Of a stretch of DNA of 64,000 nt, positions 19,398-63,356 are shown piece after piece; position 1 is the first letter of the stretch; each line of letters starts with the position of its first letter. Position numbers and translations under genes: made by a program. Source of the stretch: an uncultured Gammaproteobacteria bacterium (GTDB lineage Bacteria; Pseudomonadota; Gammaproteobacteria; Steroidobacterales; Rariloculaceae); the NCBI GenBank assembly GCA_963782445.1, contig CAWAJM010000001.1, positions 2,854,179 to 2,918,178 on the forward strand, in the 5' to 3' direction. Below the pieces are notes generated by a model, which was given only the letters and a program-made list of their open reading frames with translations, was not told the origin of the DNA and searched no databases.

Positions 19398-19571
19398 GCG
19401 GCGCGTGCGGGTAGCCCGCATGATTCACGAACGGGCTTGGCGCGGGGGGGTTGTCGGAGGCTCGTGCTGCCACGGCGCGAGGAGATTGGCGGGGCGAAGA
19501 CCGTAACCCTGGCGGCTGCAGCAGACCCCGGCCCGGGCGCTCTTCGGCGGCTATAGCCAGCCCGGTATCCA

Positions 19572-19694
19572 GGCTTCAGGCTGCTCGTCGTAAGGGCGGT
19601 GTCGGGACGCTGAGCGCCAGGGATGGCGCTCAGCGAGCGCCCAGGGACGGGTTCACGGCGGTCCCGACACCGCCCTTACGACGAGCCTGAAGCC
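19572..19694 (+). repeat. Nested-palindrome intergenic repeat, copy 1 (full length)
   Basis: The outer arm GGCTTCAGGCTGCTCGTCGTAAGGGCGGTGTCGGGAC pairs with GTCCCGACACCGCCCTTACGACGAGCCTGAAGCC. The inner hairpin is GCTGAGCGCC-aggga-TGGCGCTCAGC. An asymmetric core, GAGCGCCCAGGGACGGGTTCACGGCG, sets the orientation. It lies between the convergent CBS and kinase genes. Confidence 0.85.
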
Positions 19695-19743
19695 CCACCG
19701 GCAACGTCTCGAAAAGCCTCACCGCCGCCGACGAGCGACCGAG

Positions 19744-27760: not shown

Positions 27761-27804
27761 TTCCCGCCGTTGGCGGCAGGCCGCCGACGGCCATCGCCAT
27801 ACCA

Positions 27805-27924
27805 GGCGGAGGCTTGTGCGTAAGGGCGGTGTCGGGACGCTGAGCGCCACGGAGGGCGCTCAGCGAGCCCCCAGGGACGGGTTCACGGCGGCCCCGACAC
27901 CGCCCTTACGCACAAGCCTCCGCC
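27805..27924 (+). repeat. Nested-palindrome intergenic repeat, copy 2 (full length, same orientation as copy 1)
   Basis: GGCGGAGGCTTGTGCGTAAGGGCGGTGTCGGGAC ... GCTGAGCGCC-acggag-GGCGCTCAGC ... GCCCCGACACCGCCCTTACGCACAAGCCTCCGCC. The outer arms differ from copy 1 but remain self-complementary. Confidence 0.85.
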
Positions 27925-28035
27925 TGCCACCGACGTCTCCGCGCCGATGCCTCCGCCCGCGCCCGAAGGTTGACGCCGTCGCCGCCCCCGTCGAAGAATG
28001 CCCGAACAACGAGAACGACACCGGAAGGAAACCCA

Positions 28036-29571
28036 ATGAGACGAGCCACCCGCCGGCAGGCGATGCTATGCGCGTTAGCTGCCGTTGCCGTCGCCGGCCC
28101 GCTCGCGGCCGAAGCTGCGCCTTCGGACTGCGCTTCGCTCGCGAGCCACAAGGCCCCGGGCGCGGCGCTCGAGGTCGAAAGTGCGAAGGAAACGGCGGCC
28201 ACCGACGCGCTGCCCGCGCACTGCCTCGTGCGCGGCGCGCTCGAGCGCCGCAAGGGCGTCGGCGGCGTCGACTACGCGATCCGCTTTGCGCTTGCGCTGC
28301 CCGACGCGTGGAACGGCCGGTTCCTGTTCCAGGGCGGCGGGGGGCTCAACGGCCGCGTGCGGCCGCCCACGGGCGCGACGGCGGCCGGCGATCGGCCCGC
28401 GCTCGCCCGCGGCTTCGCCGTGGTCAGCACGGACAGTGGCCACGAAGGCGCCGTCTTCGACGGCCGCTTTCTGGCCGACCAGGAAGCCGCCCTGAATTTT
28501 CTGTATCTCAGCGTGGGCAAAGTCACGCGCGCGGCGAAAGGGCTTGTCGCGGCGTATTACGGCCGGCCGGCCGCGCACTCGTATTTCGTCGGCTGCTCGA
28601 CGGGCGGCCGCGAGGCCATGATCGCCTCCGAGCGCTATCCGGATGCGTTCGACGGCATCGTGGCCGGCTCTCCGGCCATGCGTACGGGCTACTCGAACAT
28701 CGGCATGCGCTGGGTCGAGGTCGCTATCGACGGGCTTTCGAAGCGCGACGCGCACGGCATGCCGATTCCAGGCACCGGGCTGACCGACTCGGACCGGCAG
28801 CTCATCGTCGACAAGCTCGTCGCGGAGTGCGACGCCAAGGACGGCCTTGCGGACGGCATGATCTTCAACGCGAAGGCGTGCAAATTCGATCCGGCCGAGC
28901 TCACCTGCCGCGGTGCGAACACCTCGCAGTGCCTCGCACCGGCCAAGGTGGCGGCCGTCGAGCGGGCCATGTCGGGCCCCGTGGATGCCAACGGCGACCA
29001 GGTCTATCCCGGCTACCCCTACGACACGGGCATCGCCGCGCACGGACCCGGGGTGCTGCCGGGCGTGCTGAACGGGGCCCCGAGCCCCGTCGACCCGCCC
29101 GTCCCGCCGACGCATCAGGATGTCGACAAGGAGGCCATCGCGGCCGCGACCGGCGTCGAGGCATTGGGGTATACGCGCGCCTGGACAAACTTGAGCTCAT
29201 TTTCATCTCATGGCGGTAAGCTTTTGTTTTACCATGGAATGAGCGACCCTTGGTTCTCGGCCAACGACACGATCGGGTACTACGAGCAACTCGCCGCGGA
29301 CGGCGGCGGCAGCGCGGCGATCGCAAAGTGGAGCCGGCTGTTTCTCGTGCCGGGCATGAGCCATTGCGGGGGCGGTCGCTCGCTCGATCGCTTCGACCTG
29401 CTCGGCGCCGTCGTGGACTGGGTGGAGCACGGCCGAGCGCCGGCGAGCGTGACGGCCACGGGTCCCGCCTTCCCGGGCCGCTCGCGGCCACTGTGTCCGT
29501 ACCCGGCGCATGCCGAGTACCGCGGATCGGGCGATCCGGACGACGCGGGAAATTTCGTCTGCCGGCGTTGA
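28036..29571 (+). CDS. Secreted tannase/feruloyl-esterase family hydrolase
   Basis: Part of ORF 27970..29571. The start is ATG 28036 after GGAAGGA. A signal peptide is present. Family blocks include LPDAWNGRFLFQGGGG, FAVVSTDSGH, the nucleophile motif YFVGCSTGGREAM, RYPDAFDGIVAGSPA and VPGMSHCGGG. Confidence 0.7.
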   Translation: MRRATRRQAMLCALAAVAVAGPLAAEAAPSDCASLASHKAPGAALEVESAKETAATDALPAHCLVRGALERRKGVGGVDYAIRFALALPDAWNGRFLFQGGGGLNGRVRPPTGATAAGDRPALARGFAVVSTDSGHEGAVFDGRFLADQEAALNFLYLSVGKVTRAAKGLVAAYYGRPAAHSYFVGCSTGGREAMIASERYPDAFDGIVAGSPAMRTGYSNIGMRWVEVAIDGLSKRDAHGMPIPGTGLTDSDRQLIVDKLVAECDAKDGLADGMIFNAKACKFDPAELTCRGANTSQCLAPAKVAAVERAMSGPVDANGDQVYPGYPYDTGIAAHGPGVLPGVLNGAPSPVDPPVPPTHQDVDKEAIAAATGVEALGYTRAWTNLSSFSSHGGKLLFYHGMSDPWFSANDTIGYYEQLAADGGGSAAIAKWSRLFLVPGMSHCGGGRSLDRFDLLGAVVDWVEHGRAPASVTATGPAFPGRSRPLCPYPAHAEYRGSGDPDDAGNFVCRR

Positions 29572-53527: not shown

Positions 53528-53691
53528 TAGTGGCCTGTAACGGCTGATTCGGTAGCGCCTGAACGCGTCTGGCGCGCCGGTGCCGCGTTGCTCGTCGTCG
53601 CCATAGTCACCACTATACCTCCTCCTCGCGCCTTGCCCCGACGCGCCATCCATCGCTCAGCCACTACCGAATCAGCCGTTACAGGCCACTA
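53528..53691. mobile_element. MITE-like element: perfect 28-bp terminal inverted repeats around a 108-bp non-coding core
   Basis: TAGTGGCCTGTAACGGCTGATTCGGTAG at 53528..53555 is the exact reverse complement of 53664..53691. The outermost TA on each side could be a TA target duplication. There is no ORF inside. Confidence 0.55.
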
Positions 53692-53945: not shown

Positions 53946-55502
53946 TTGAACCTACCACCGCTCCTCGCGGCGAGCCTCGCGCTCGGAACCCTCGGTGCGG
54001 CCGCGGCCGTCGACGGCGCGCCGAAGCCGCCGCCGAAGAACTGGACCGCCGAGCAGGACCGCCGGAACATGATGCAGCAGCTCGGCATCGAAGCGCTGCG
54101 GCCCGGGCCGAGCGGCAACGAAAAAGCGCCGAATCACGCCAACTACGACGAATCGAAGGCCGACCCGTTTCCGACGCTTCCCGACGCGCTGACGACGAAA
54201 GACGGCCGCAAGGTCACAACGCCCGAGCTGTGGTGGCACGTGCGCCGGCCCGAGATCGTCGCGGACTTCGAGCGCGAGATCTACGGCCGCGTACCCGCGC
54301 ACATGCCCAAAGTCATATGGTCGGTCCAGGCTGTCGACCATGAGGTCATCGGCCGGCTGCCCGTCATTGCCAAGAAGCTCGTCGGCCACGTCGACAACTC
54401 GAGCTATCCGCTCATCAACGTCAATATAGAGATGACGCTCGTGACGCCGGCGAACGCACACGGGCCCGTGCCCGTGCTCATGATGTTCGGGGGCGGCGGC
54501 TTTCCCGCGCCGGCGCAGCCCTCGCGCGCGGAGCTCGCGAGAATCAATGCGGCGCTCAAGGCCGCCGCGATCGCGCAGGACCCTTCTCTCGCCGCCTTGT
54601 TCGACGCGCATCCCGCCTACGAGCTCGTCAAGCCCGAGCCCTTCCGGTTCCCGCGGCGCAACGCAGACGGCGACCCGCCGAACGACGAGGAGCTCATCAT
54701 GGACGGCTGGGGATTCGCCTCGATCGATCCGACGAGCGTCCAGGCCGACAATGGCGCAGGTCTCAGGCGCGGAATCATCGGGCTCGTCGACCAAGGCCGG
54801 CCGCGCAAGCCCGACGCCTGGGGCGCGCTCAGAGCTTGGGCCTGGGGCGCGAGCCGCGGCTTCGACTACCTTGCGACGGACCCGGCCGTCGACGCCAAGC
54901 ACATCGGCATCGAAGGCGTCTCGCGCTACGGCAAGGCGGCGCTCGTCACGATGGCGTTCGACCGGCGCTTCAAAATGGTGCTCATCGGCTCTTCCGGCGA
55001 AGGCGGCGCCAAACTCCATCGGCGCAACTTCGGCGAGGCCGTCGAGAATCTCACGGGCACCGCTGAGTACCACTGGATGGCCGGCAACTTCCTCAAATAC
55101 GGGGCGGCGAAGGCGCGCTTCGGCAGCATGAACGCGGGCGATCTGCCGGTCGACGCGCACGAGCTCATCGCCCTGTGCGCGCCGCGCCTCACCTTCGTGA
55201 GCTACGGCGTGCCCGCGAAGGGCGACGCGAAGTGGCTGGATCAGAAAGGCAGCTTCATGGCGGCCGTGGCGGCCCAGCCCGTGTTTCGGCTGCTCGGCGC
55301 GAAGGGCCTCGGCGTCCCCGACGACTATCGCAACGCGACGCTGCCGCCCGTGAACCACGGTCTACTCGGCGGCGAGCTCGCCTGGCGCCAACACGACGGC
55401 GGCCATACGGATGCGCCGAACATGAAATACTTCATCGCCTGGGTGGACGAGCATATCGGCCGCCCGTCCAAGCTCATGCCAGACGGATTGGGAGGTTTCT
55501 GA
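53946..55502 (+). CDS. Secreted CE15-like (glucuronoyl esterase-type) alpha/beta hydrolase
   Basis: ORF 53853..55502. The likely start is TTG 53946 after GGGAGAG, giving the signal peptide LNLPPLLAASLALGTLGAAAA. The nucleophile motif is IGIEGVSRYGKAAL (CE15 G-x-S-R-x-G-K). It also has IGSSGEGGAKL, LPVDAHELIALCAPR and HDGGHTD. Confidence 0.55.
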   Translation: MNLPPLLAASLALGTLGAAAAVDGAPKPPPKNWTAEQDRRNMMQQLGIEALRPGPSGNEKAPNHANYDESKADPFPTLPDALTTKDGRKVTTPELWWHVRRPEIVADFEREIYGRVPAHMPKVIWSVQAVDHEVIGRLPVIAKKLVGHVDNSSYPLINVNIEMTLVTPANAHGPVPVLMMFGGGGFPAPAQPSRAELARINAALKAAAIAQDPSLAALFDAHPAYELVKPEPFRFPRRNADGDPPNDEELIMDGWGFASIDPTSVQADNGAGLRRGIIGLVDQGRPRKPDAWGALRAWAWGASRGFDYLATDPAVDAKHIGIEGVSRYGKAALVTMAFDRRFKMVLIGSSGEGGAKLHRRNFGEAVENLTGTAEYHWMAGNFLKYGAAKARFGSMNAGDLPVDAHELIALCAPRLTFVSYGVPAKGDAKWLDQKGSFMAAVAAQPVFRLLGAKGLGVPDDYRNATLPPVNHGLLGGELAWRQHDGGHTDAPNMKYFIAWVDEHIGRPSKLMPDGLGGF

Positions 55503-55504
55503 GA

Positions 55505-57100
55505 ATGCGCAATGCTTACAGGATCGGTTCGGCCGCAGTCGCTGTGCTCGTGCTGGCGGGGCCCGCGGCACACGCCCAGGCGTTCGCCGACGCAGCGTCG
55601 GCGCGCTCCGACTACGTCAAAGCCCCGCTGAAGCCTCGGGCCGATTGCGCCGATCTCGCCGCCGCGAAGCTGCCGGACCTCGTGCGTCTCGATGCCCGCA
55701 GCCTGCCGGCGGCCAACGGCGTGCCGGCACATTGCCGAGTGGACGGCGTCATCGCCCCGCAGATCCGCTTCGAGGTGAACCTGCCCGCCGCCTGGAACGG
55801 CCGCTTCTATATGATCGGCAACGGCGGCCTCGCGGGCCAGGAGGCCGACGACCCGCGCAACGCCGCCGCCCGCGCCGCCGCCCTCGCCCACGGCTTCGCG
55901 ATGGCGAGCACGGATACCGGTCACGACGCGCAAAAGGAGGCCGGCGGCAGTTTCGTGATGAGCAATCCGCAAAAAGCCATCGACTACGCGTACCGTGCCG
56001 TGCATACGACGGCGACGACGGCCAAGGACATCGTGAGCCGCTACTACGGGCGGCCGGCTGAGCGCTCGTATTGGAACTCGTGCTCGAACGGCGGGCGCCA
56101 AGGGCTGCTCGAAGCCGAGCGCTACCCGGCCGACTTCGACGGCATCGTCGCGAATGCGCCCTGGATCGACCAGACCGGCTTCACGATCGGCGCGCTGTGG
56201 AATCAGCGTGCCCTCGGCGCAACCCCGGTCTCCGCCGCCAAGATCGCGCTCGTCGCGAAGCACGTCATGGCGAAGTGCGACGGGCTCGACGGGCTCGCTG
56301 ACGGCCTCATCGACGACCCGCGCAGGTGCGCGTTCGACGCCCGCAAGGACGTGCCGATGTGCGCGGCCGGCACCGAGTCGGCAAGCTGTCTCACGCCCGC
56401 CGAGGCCGCGGCCGTGCAGAAGGTCTACGAGGGCCCCCGCACCCATGCCGGCCGGCAGATCTTTCCGGGCTACATGCCGGGCAGCGAAGCGCTCGCTCCC
56501 GGCCGCAACGGCGAGTCCGCGAGCGGCTGGAGCAATCTGATCCTGCCGGGTCGGCCCGGCGCGAAGCCGGCCGACTTCAACCTGGCCGAGCAGATCATGC
56601 GCTACCTCGTGTTCAAGCCGCCGATGCCCGATTACGACTATCGCACGTTCGACTTCGACCGCGACCCGCAGCTGCTCGAGCGCTGGGGCAAGATCGCCGA
56701 CGCGACGGACACGAACCTCGAAGCATTCCGCAAGCGCGGCGGCAAGCTCATCATCACCCACGGCTGGGCGGACCCCATCCTGCAGCCGCTCGAAAGCGTG
56801 CACTACTACGAGCAGGCCCTCGCCGCCAACGCGCCGAATGCGACCGACTTTCTGCGCCTCTACATGGTGCCCGGCATGGCCCATTGCGCGGGCGGCGTCG
56901 GGCCCGACCAGAACGACGCCGTCACGGCCGTCATCGACTGGGTCGAGCGCGGCGTCGCGCCGCGGCGCATCAAGGCCCGTAAGATCGTCGCCGGCAAGGT
57001 CGTGCGCTCGCGGCCGCTGTGCCCGTATCCGCAGGTCGCACGCTACAAGGGCGACGGCAGCATCGACGACGCCGCAAGCTTCGAGTGCCGGGCGCCGTAG
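55505..57100 (+). CDS. Secreted tannase/feruloyl-esterase family hydrolase (second paralog)
   Basis: Part of ORF 55175..57100. ATG 55505 lies 3 nt after the CE15-like stop. The signal peptide is MRNAYRIGSAAVAVLVLAGPAAHA. It has LPAAWNGRFYMIGNGG, FAMASTDTGH, the nucleophile YWNSCSNGGRQGL, RYPADFDGIVANAPW and VPGMAHCAGG. Confidence 0.7.
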   Translation: MRNAYRIGSAAVAVLVLAGPAAHAQAFADAASARSDYVKAPLKPRADCADLAAAKLPDLVRLDARSLPAANGVPAHCRVDGVIAPQIRFEVNLPAAWNGRFYMIGNGGLAGQEADDPRNAAARAAALAHGFAMASTDTGHDAQKEAGGSFVMSNPQKAIDYAYRAVHTTATTAKDIVSRYYGRPAERSYWNSCSNGGRQGLLEAERYPADFDGIVANAPWIDQTGFTIGALWNQRALGATPVSAAKIALVAKHVMAKCDGLDGLADGLIDDPRRCAFDARKDVPMCAAGTESASCLTPAEAAAVQKVYEGPRTHAGRQIFPGYMPGSEALAPGRNGESASGWSNLILPGRPGAKPADFNLAEQIMRYLVFKPPMPDYDYRTFDFDRDPQLLERWGKIADATDTNLEAFRKRGGKLIITHGWADPILQPLESVHYYEQALAANAPNATDFLRLYMVPGMAHCAGGVGPDQNDAVTAVIDWVERGVAPRRIKARKIVAGKVVRSRPLCPYPQVARYKGDGSIDDAASFECRAP

Positions 57101-57179: not shown

Positions 57180-57228
57180 GCTTCAGGCTCGGCGCAAGGG
57201 CGGCGGCGGGACCGCCGTGAACCCGTCC
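57180..57228 (-). repeat. Nested-palindrome repeat, truncated copy 3 (one arm plus part of core)
   Basis: GCTTCAGGCTCGGCGCAAGGGCGGCGGCGGGACCGCCGTGAACCCGTCC aligns with the first 50 nt of copy 4. The inner hairpin and second arm are missing. Confidence 0.6.
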
Positions 57229-57251
57229 ATGAATCATGCGGAATCGTAGCC

Positions 57252-63110: not shown

Positions 63111-63230
63111 GGCTTCAGGCTCGACGCAAGGGCGGTGTCGGGACCGCCGTGAACCCGTCCCTGGGGGCTCGCTGACCGCCATCCCTGGCGGTCAGCGTCC
63201 CGACACCGCCCTTGCGTCGAGCCTGAAGCC
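63111..63230 (-). repeat. Nested-palindrome intergenic repeat, copy 4 (full length, inverted relative to copies 1 and 2)
   Basis: GGCTTCAGGCTCGACGCAAGGGCGGTGTCGGGAC-CGCCGTGAACCCGTCCCTGGGGGCTC-GCTGACCGCC-atccct-GGCGGTCAGC-GTCCCGACACCGCCCTTGCGTCGAGCCTGAAGCC. It is preceded by a small local duplication, GGTGGCGGGTTTCAG / GGTGGCGGGCTTCAG. Confidence 0.85.
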
Positions 63231-63356
63231 AGAGACGGAGGCGGCCATCGCCGTTGAAGGCCGCACGGACTAGCGTCTTCGCGCCAGCGATCTCCTCGCG
63301 CCGTGGCAGCAGGATGCATGAACGGCCACCGCCGTCACAGAGGAGGCGCGTGCGGG

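Follow-up and report, generated by a model that had tools for sequence, protein, structure and literature searches.

The original description of the Yersinia palindromic repeat YPAL, also called RU-2 (see also Delihas 2007/2008), is said to be that of De Gregorio et al. in 2006. YPAL is a miniature insertion sequence whose inverted repeats are internal rather than terminal; its target duplications span 3-26 bp, its targets lie at or beside dyad symmetries, and both filled and empty sites between Yersinia species and co-transcription with upstream genes have been documented (PMC2229807). Rfam holds a Yersinia-only model of the antisense strand of YPAL, filed as a small RNA (sRNA) gene under the name Ysr224, and high Ysr224 counts place it among the most abundant 'sRNAs' in surveys (PMC9029176), which is the result of its being a multi-copy repeat. 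Here, a nested-palindrome repeat family is described from a 64-kb stretch (hereafter the window) of contig CAWAJM010000001.1 of an uncultured gammaproteobacterium. The repeats of the window are probably non-coding, non-autonomous mobile DNA of the YPAL/RU-2 type.

A first-pass annotation of the window, made from the sequence alone, left the family unclassified. This no longer holds, since the core of the repeat is homologous to YPAL/RU-2 of Yersinia and is modelled, on the other strand, by Rfam Ysr224. At gathering thresholds Rfam reports no family in the window, and only tRNAs in 15 element-bearing metagenome loci; in E-value mode copy 1 has, on its minus strand, a weak match to RF02770 Ysr224 (25 bits, E 0.0014; gathering score 70). 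Ysr224 was compared with window positions 19606-19720; its reverse complement is the centre of the 168-nt Y. pestis RU-2/YPAL sequence printed by Delihas (PMC2759123), and this published YPAL sequence is an exact fit to the pattern used for the metagenome scan described below. Two covariance models were built and scanned. Model R1, built without any enterobacterial sequence, recovers at 33 bits (E 1.4e-4) a YPAL-like copy from an E. coli plasmid. Model R2, built from 110 metagenome copies alone, recovers the window copies at 73-80 bits on the sense strand (E about 1e-19 to 1e-21), the opposite strand scoring 15-18 bits: copy 1 scores 73.4 bits (E 5e-19) on the plus and 18.4 bits on the minus strand, copy 2 scores 73.6 bits and copy 3 scores 80.4 bits (E 5e-21). 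By this homology the window elements are members of a YPAL superfamily without Rfam coverage. Among the options named earlier, a MITE (miniature inverted-repeat transposable element)-type family is borne out, and the repeats do form a dispersed, intergenic, nested-palindrome family. The window member of YPAL/RU-2 is new, being shorter and high in GC and having its own arms and flank motifs; a search of the available literature found no paper with the repeat's own sequence strings and none reporting YPAL outside Enterobacterales.

The conserved unit of the family is a head of about 60 nt, which folds as a three-way junction of the outer stem P1 and two hairpins, P2 and P3. RNAalifold returns this junction for 110 copies, with compensatory changes in 27 of 32 pairs and covariation in all three helices. 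P1 comprises 20-37 bp (median arm length 27 bp) and its sequence changes from copy to copy; across taxa the outer arms are wholly different in sequence yet paired, while the centre is conserved. P2 is made up of 6-10 bp, a covarying 2-bp extension and a hexaloop, and P3 of GCC/GGC, the 5-nt bulge UUYAC, and a stem of 3 bp that carries a second hexaloop. Two P3 pairs left unconstrained by the search pattern covary (UA 64, CG 37, GC 3 and AU 2 at one; AU 56 and CG 46 at the other). In the first alignment (A3), 86.7% of cells were paired, against 66.1% in shuffles, and 21 pairs had changed on both sides; none of 500 shuffles matched the observed pairing, and sliding the partner by 1-3 columns reduced it to 39-51%. 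The outer stem of roughly 34 bp and the inner hairpin described in the first-pass annotation are both real, the latter being present in all three full copies and carrying a compensated change in copy 3 (GCTGACCGCC/GGCGGTCAGC). What was taken for an unpaired asymmetric core is in fact paired, as a further short hairpin (CCC-AGGGAC-GGG) with a stem that covaries among relatives. Each hexaloop has the sequence A-N-G-G-A-Y on a closing C-G pair. In the genome set, in which the P2 loop was unconstrained by the search, the positions C-A-x-G-G-A-x-G are invariant, and in copies found by the model alone the P3 loops are again ANGGAY, on stems of CCC/GGG, UAC/GUA or UCC/GGA. The element therefore has a conserved, structured centre and hypervariable ends. 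Because the centre and not the ends is conserved, it misfits the way in which transposases usually recognize MITEs: a search for conserved terminal inverted repeats found the outermost arm to be the least conserved part and gave no fixed-length duplication. No parent insertion sequence (IS) turned up in the census of neighbouring genes, the sole place where one was sought.

How widely is this head distributed? The exact core 22-mer is found at 33 loci in a species-representative genome set, which include Stenotrophomonas, a Lysobacteraceae metagenome-assembled genome, Saccharospirillum, Steroidobacteraceae and Pseudohongiella. True genomic matches are all from Gammaproteobacteria, of several orders, and three non-gammaproteobacterial 22-mer matches are without the element. 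The closest complete genome found, OY969712.1 (5.45 Mb, from an uncultured gammaproteobacterium), has 11 exact-core loci between 0.58 and 5.13 Mb, with at least 4 further copies within the same 8-kb loci. A degenerate pattern (CANGGAYG, 15-16 nt, CANGGAYG-NN-YTY-ACGGCG), in which both hairpin stems were left free, retrieved at least 120 loci with at least 133 copies from metagenome contigs with GC contents of 42-72%. Dispersal in a related 5.45-Mb chromosome, in several orders and in at least 120 metagenome contigs excludes a local duplication. Synteny between the window and the retrieved element loci was absent. YPAL, treated so far as a Yersinia/Erwinia curiosity and entered in Rfam as a Yersinia sRNA of the wrong strand, becomes one branch of a wide gammaproteobacterial family that is common in environmental metagenomes, and a covariance model would allow its elements to be masked in place of spurious open reading frame (ORF) or sRNA calls.

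Scanning a plasmid collection with a window copy gave no match, and viral contigs gave 4 matches only, which speaks against a phage association. A single YPAL-like copy, with 75% identity to the Y. pestis unit, lies on the E. coli plasmid NZ_CP058751.1 (34719-34882; locus L034) and on 16 other enterobacterial plasmids. These are conjugative plasmids of Klebsiella, Citrobacter, Escherichia and Shigella, and the copy, situated between IS remnants, has genes for alcohol dehydrogenase and threonine ammonia-lyase beside it. ERIC is universal in E. coli genomes. Identity with ERIC was ruled out, as the YPAL-like query matched 5 of 5426 E. coli genomes.

Head and arms are conserved to different degrees. 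Heads are 89-98% identical where the arms are 55-67% identical, shuffled arms giving 50 ± 7%. At locus L102, two copies have a rare P3 variant in common and unrelated arms, and the copies of L005, L014 and L029 have heads similar to, and arms unrelated to, those of A-type copies of the same chromosome. This mismatch implies either that the head was copied without its arms or that the arms were rebuilt. Where arms are related, as in L081 and L132, their differences are compensated, implying that one arm was copied from the other or that selection is strong. Paired copies obey a further rule. Metagenome neighbours within 1.5 kb comprise 17 pairs with their 5' ends facing (<- ->; for example L102, positions 243 and 508), 7 tandem pairs and no pair of the opposite kind (-> <-), and the pairs of the genome loci are <- -> in eight of eight cases (L001, L011, L012, L015, L016, L020, L021, L028). 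As the partners usually differ in their arms, such pairs are not simple inverted duplications. A preference for hairpins or terminators on the 5' side does not account for them either, the hairpin potential of the flanks being equal 5' and 3'. The Stenotrophomonas locus, in contrast, forms in its entirety a single large palindrome that surrounds a pair of SMAG REPs.

Evidence of mobility comes from copy 2 of the window, which lies beside a gene for a DUF3240 protein. An 82%-identical ortholog of this protein exists in OY969712.1, in the same CzcA-DUF3240-tannase gene order, and the orthologous spacer of 120 nt is element-free, its promoter-proximal part aligning well. The empty site has one copy of a GCCRCCGACGTCTC-like motif followed by GCCTCCGCC. 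At the filled site, GCCRCCGAC is present on both sides of copy 2, and GCCTCCGCC occurs twice in direct and once in inverted orientation, as the outer arm ends; the sequence of the outer 3' arm end recurs in the flank as GCGCCGATGCCTCCGCC, the part kept where the orthologous site is empty. Motifs of the GCCRCCGACGTCTC type stand on both sides of A-type copies in L012, L020, L021 and L028, and copy 1 has a looser direct copy of its flank motif 5' of the element. The flank motif is a candidate target-site duplication or preferred target, and the copy 2 locus, as judged from one divergent genome pair, looks like target preference with duplication. Insertions are also found in rpsS-rplV and lpxD-fabZ spacers, and several truncated copies are known.

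Two kinds of array were observed next to copies in OY969712.1. The copy inside the S10 ribosomal-protein operon (L005, 4368001-4376000), in the sense orientation between rpsS and rplV, has short GAGACAGTGTCCAA tandem repeats immediately upstream. A-type copies of L028 (4883-5834) and L012 (198-850) lie between mirrored tandem arrays with a unit length of about 34 nt and no more than about 9 units, the unit consisting of the outer arm end and the flank motif (GGCGGAGGCATCGGCGC..GACGTCTCC on the left, a partial complement on the right). With these arrays the palindrome reaches several hundred bases, with periodic internal loops.

In a palindrome that acted as duplex DNA only, G·T and A·C mismatches would be equally frequent on a given strand. 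This is not what is observed. On the strand with the GGA loops, the arm pairs of 112 metagenome copies comprise 2677 Watson-Crick, 102 G·U, 17 A·C and 78 other pairs (n=2874; p = 6e-16), and in the genome set G·U mismatches outnumber A·C by 20 to 1. As the G·U excess is equal in sense and antisense contexts (G·U:A·C 15:2 and 16:5, respectively), the strand-specific constraint is intrinsic to the element. The bias points to a single-stranded form of the sense strand, RNA or DNA, that would serve in propagation or maintenance and not in host transcripts.

In what form, then, might such an element spread? It may propagate via, or be selected as, a single-stranded form of its sense strand, most likely RNA and possibly single-stranded DNA (ssDNA). 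A dimeric trans-acting factor would read the two identical loops in this form, and copying of one arm from the other would keep the arms perfectly complementary or restore them to that state. After insertion, the chief effect of copies would be to form highly stable hairpins within intergenic transcripts, which is what has been reported for YPAL in Yersinia. Family breadth, a three-way-junction head with CsrA-like loops, a wobble signal independent of transcription, the mismatch of head and arms, and the <- -> rule all go beyond the available literature.

Several observations weigh against mobile DNA of this kind, or against parts of the proposal. Presence and absence are seen at one locus only, where the flanking protein is 82% identical, and the direct repeats that flank the window subtype could reflect target preference instead of duplication. 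Target duplications directly outside the arms were not above shuffled pairings in 97 metagenome copies. All-against-all clustering of the ORFs of about 150 loci gave no recurrent transposase or reverse transcriptase; the recurrent neighbour families were only the common GGDEF, histidine-kinase and ABC families. Co-directional metagenome spacers hold 15 sense and 18 antisense copies. About half of the copies thus cannot show their GGA loops in host mRNAs, which weakens a role of CsrA at the level of the host. Part of the loop invariance seen in the metagenome set is owed to the search pattern itself, and sequence cannot distinguish RNA from ssDNA.

What could read the two loops? Both have the form C-ANGGAY-G, with about 24 nt from GGA to GGA, and fit the CsrA/RsmE motif A/U-CANGGANG-U/A. 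The spacing of CsrA dual sites reportedly ranges over 10-63 nt, a figure ascribed to Mercante et al. 2009, and a separation of about 24 nt would be suitable for a single CsrA dimer. PMC6849547 quotes both the CsrA/RsmE motif and the SELEX (systematic evolution of ligands by exponential enrichment) consensus RUACARGGAUGU, and the YPAL P3 hairpin UACAUGGAUGUA matches 11 of its 12 positions. Judged on loop sequence, the global regulator CsrA/RsmA is the best candidate reader, a tentative assignment. No csrA genes or GacA boxes were found near copies, and the literature search found no paper linking YPAL to CsrA. A bolder scheme, possible but doubtful, would make the head a widespread selfish module, so far unrecognized, that is read as single-stranded RNA by a CsrA/RsmA dimer at a high-affinity dual site made up of the two C-ANGGAY-G hairpins of the three-way junction: the element would rely on CsrA, or exploit it, for stability or propagation, the copies would titrate CsrA, and the head would move while the arms are rebuilt as perfect complements at each site. 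If this were true, titration would matter most in Xanthomonadales and relatives without a CsrB/RsmZ-type sponge, the loops would bear on the buffering of CsrA where CsrB-type RNAs are absent, and movement of a head with rebuilt arms would be a mode of mobilization undescribed for bacterial repeats.

The same loops could instead belong to a host regulatory module, a dual CsrA/RsmA site placed in mRNAs or acting as a dispersed sponge, which is retained for regulating or stabilizing transcripts nearby and whose mobility is incidental. The CANGGAYG-type loops in C-G-closed hexaloops, the SELEX match of the YPAL variant and the restriction of true genomic matches to Gammaproteobacteria would all suit such a module, as would the finding that Xanthomonas genomes have CsrA and lack CsrB/CsrC homologues (PMC7286519). 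Orientation at first appeared to agree as well. A rule by which copies lie sense in host mRNAs held in 9 of 9 cases among the first 20 genomic copies and, after better gene calls, in 6 of 6 co-directional single copies of this small genome set; it was dropped at the metagenome count of 15:18, for which Pfam bears out the antisense cases (copies between metK and ahcY and between two tldD/pmbA genes are examples). In antisense contexts the G·U bias is as strong, a third GGA motif is not generally enriched in the flanks, neither a GacA box nor a promoter stands beside copies, and the neighbouring genes form no coherent regulon. A host module is, on this balance, improbable, and the mobile YPAL/RU-2-type reading is preferred.

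Still less probable is a relic of an ssDNA transposon, in which P2 and P3 would be the end hairpins of a minimal IS200/IS605- or RAYT-type element (PATE- or REPIN-like) mobilized on one strand by an HUH Y1 transposase. A structural constraint that is strand-specific and independent of transcription would be expected of such an element, two similar hairpins could bind a dimer, inverted pairs are frequent (25 <- -> and no -> <-), and the Stenotrophomonas copies adjoin SMAG REP sequences. IS608-type insertion is biased to the lagging-strand template. The orientation of copies relative to replication, with local GC skew as a proxy, shows no such bias (36:36), no Y1 transposase gene recurs near the copies of about 150 loci, the foot of the hairpins bears no GTAG/CGTC tag, and no conserved cleavage tetranucleotide was identified. 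The REP/BIME option named by the first-pass annotation fails on similar grounds. REP units are 20-40 bp long and bear a GTAG or CGTC tag (PMC3733652); here the unit measures 120 bp, its asymmetric core alone taking up 60 nt, and no tagged unit of 20-40 bp is present.

Independent sRNA genes, each copy with a promoter of its own as the Ysr224 entry implies, are very improbable. Ysr224 was defined from Yersinia RNA-seq, its copies differ in expression profile, and the fold is very stable; yet no promoter- or terminator-like site or consensus is found at copies, the arms and flanks, where a promoter must sit, are unconserved between copies, orientation is random relative to genes, and Ysr224 models the strand opposite to the G·U signal. 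The suggestion of a structured sRNA family is accordingly not upheld. The last alternatives, ordinary intrinsic terminators and palindromes arising by chance or by local duplication, would agree with the intergenic position of copies near stop codons and can be dismissed, being refuted by the lack of a T-run after any copy (the repeats are indeed unlike simple terminators, as first noted), by motif counts far above chance and by an asymmetric 60-nt core conserved across orders and at least 120 metagenome contigs.

Spacers that hold copies are convergent in 22, divergent in 5 and co-directional in 36 cases, and copies lie 20-175 nt from stop codons. In the window, all four copies listed by the first-pass annotation were found in place, with refined ends for copy 2 and the truncated copy (Table 1); its tally was incomplete, as a fifth, divergent relative is also present. 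The inner-arm 17-mer AAGGGCGGTGTCGGGAC occurs 7 times in the window at up to 3 mismatches, against 0.3 expected (none of 100 shuffles reaches 7), and the 20-nt core CAGGGACGGGTTCACGGCGG occurs 4 times, against 0.03 expected. Full copies fold, on either strand, with energies between -100 and -112 kcal/mol and z-scores between -11.6 and -15.2.

Table 1. Repeat copies, their parts and associated flank motifs in the 64-kb window.
Feature	Position	Strand	Remarks
Full copy 1	19572..19694	+	from sequence; fold -100.3 kcal/mol, z -11.6
Copy 1, outer stem	19572-19608 pairs with 19661-19694	+	
Copy 1, head (CGGGAC...GTCCCG)	19603-19666	+	
Copy 1, hairpin P2	19609-19634	+	loop AGGGAT, 19619-19624
Copy 1, hairpin P3 (CCC/GGG)	19640-19651	+	loop AGGGAC, 19643-19648
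Copy 1, 3' flank motif	19695..19711	+	CCCACCGGCAACGTCTC; consensus GCCRCCGACGTCTC
B-subtype partner remnant, 5' of copy 1	19410..19520		compared with intact B copies of L012, L020, L021, L028
Full copy 2	27803..27926	+	34-nt arms, 100% complementary
Copy 2, loops	P2 27849-27854; P3 27873-27878	+	P2 ACGGAG; P3 AGGGAC
Copy 2, 3' flank	27927..27957	+	CCACCGACGTCTCC, then GCGCCGATGCCTCCGCC
Divergent relative	53528..53691	-	arms 28-38 nt (38 nt, 92%); R1 31.6 bits, E 3.5e-4
Truncated copy	57180..57231	-	3' half only, P3 loop through 3' arm; 52 nt, 90% to copy 1
Full copy 3	63111..63230	-	perfect 34-nt arms; compensated P2 change
B-subtype flank and spacer module remnant, 5' of copy 3 (element orientation)	63255..63335		

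The intergenic placement of the copies is confirmed by neighbouring ORFs with Pfam support or high GC at third codon positions (GC3). The neighbours of copy 1 are an ORF, which it follows, and a histidine kinase gene, whose 3' end it faces. Copy 2 lies 42 nt past the DUF3240 stop codon, the DUF3240 gene being the last of a CzcA-type operon, and is upstream of a tannase gene and of its predicted promoter. The only sigma-70-like site near a window copy is found here, downstream of copy 2 at 27970-27999 (TTGACG, 18 nt, AAGAAT), and is probably the tannase promoter, as it falls in the spacer part kept in the empty orthologous site. Copy 3 stands between a CMD-family gene and a pyrroloquinoline quinone (PQQ)-dehydrogenase gene, both on the minus strand, and the truncated copy between a tannase gene and an AMP-binding-enzyme gene, about 20 nt past the stop codon of the latter. 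Two tannase/feruloyl-esterase paralogues (27970-29571 and 55175-57100) each adjoin a copy, copy 2 and the truncated copy respectively, and are 73% identical in DNA (28555-28664 against 56042-56151). Elsewhere in the window, four copies of a 59-nt direct repeat, 63-73% identical and at spacings of about 141-144 and 330 nt, occupy 1057-1730; they probably lie within a gene and encode a repeated protein domain.

Remnants of a second (B) subtype accompany three of the window copies. The motif CCGCATGATTCA(C/T)G(A/G)AC and the spacer module TGCTGCCACGGCGCGAGGAGAT recur beside copies (19410-19520, 57225-57241, 63255-63335), and by comparison with OY969712.1, where this subtype is intact, they are its flanks, left in the window with the head deleted. 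The remnant next to copy 1 keeps the outer flank and outer arm (CCGCATGATTCACGAACGG...GGAGGCTCGTGC) without the head and inner arms, and the spacer module follows; 55 nt of the remnant next to copy 3 are 80% complementary to 19462-19516; and the truncated copy is joined at 57225-57241 to CCGCATGATTCA itself, a motif that flanks the second subtype. As copies 1 and 3 have B-subtype remnants on their 5' sides and the truncated copy has the same flank motif, the window copies look like decayed <- -> pairs. The nested palindrome at 53528-53691 may be a divergent or recombinant relative of the main family: it shares the start of P2 (GCTGAGCG-ATGGAT-GGCGC), and within its longer head of about 90 nt a Shine-Dalgarno-like GGAGGAGG precedes an ORF of 25 codons (MATTSNAAPARQTRSGATESAVTGH).

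How does the window family compare with the systems already described? With CsrB/CsrC/RsmX/Y/Z sponges and CsrA-bound leaders it shares GGA in short C-ANGGAN-G hairpin loops at a spacing suited to a dimer. Unlike the sponges, it has only two sites per copy, no GacA/UvrY-dependent promoter and no terminator, and it is dispersed and mobile with half of its copies antisense to host transcription; its binding of CsrA is a prediction. The MITEs ERIC, Correia/NEMIS and RUP are likewise non-coding long hairpins, of 100-170 bp, and are co-transcribed with their neighbours. In these classical MITEs the terminal inverted repeats are conserved and TA duplications are usual, whereas in the window family the centre is conserved and the arms are hypervariable, and there is no sequence similarity. 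REP/BIME and REPIN sequences resemble it in being intergenic palindromes, often in inverted pairs, in the same bacterial groups. They differ in that the window family is tagless and has a 60-nt asymmetric three-way-junction core, and, as their arms are unrelated to each other, the two members of a pair cannot pair together.

The closest likeness is to YPAL. The homologous core consists of a P2 hairpin with an A-N-GGA-U loop, GAGCC, a P3 hairpin with an A-N-GGA-Y loop, and UUYACGGCG, set in a long hairpin with the same three-way junction and with internal inverted repeats. Both elements are GC-rich and intergenic, often right past stop codons, both are polymorphic for presence and absence, and no transposase is known for either. 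The window palindrome measures 120-124 bp (the palindrome only), in contrast to the 167-169 bp unit of YPAL; the arms are unrelated in sequence, and the P3 stem is CCC/GGG in the window and UAC/GUA in YPAL. The window subtype is flanked by GCCRCCGACGTCTC motifs, to which the related genome adds mirrored arrays of about 34-nt tandem units, and its host is an uncultured high-GC gammaproteobacterium, as opposed to Yersinia or Erwinia.

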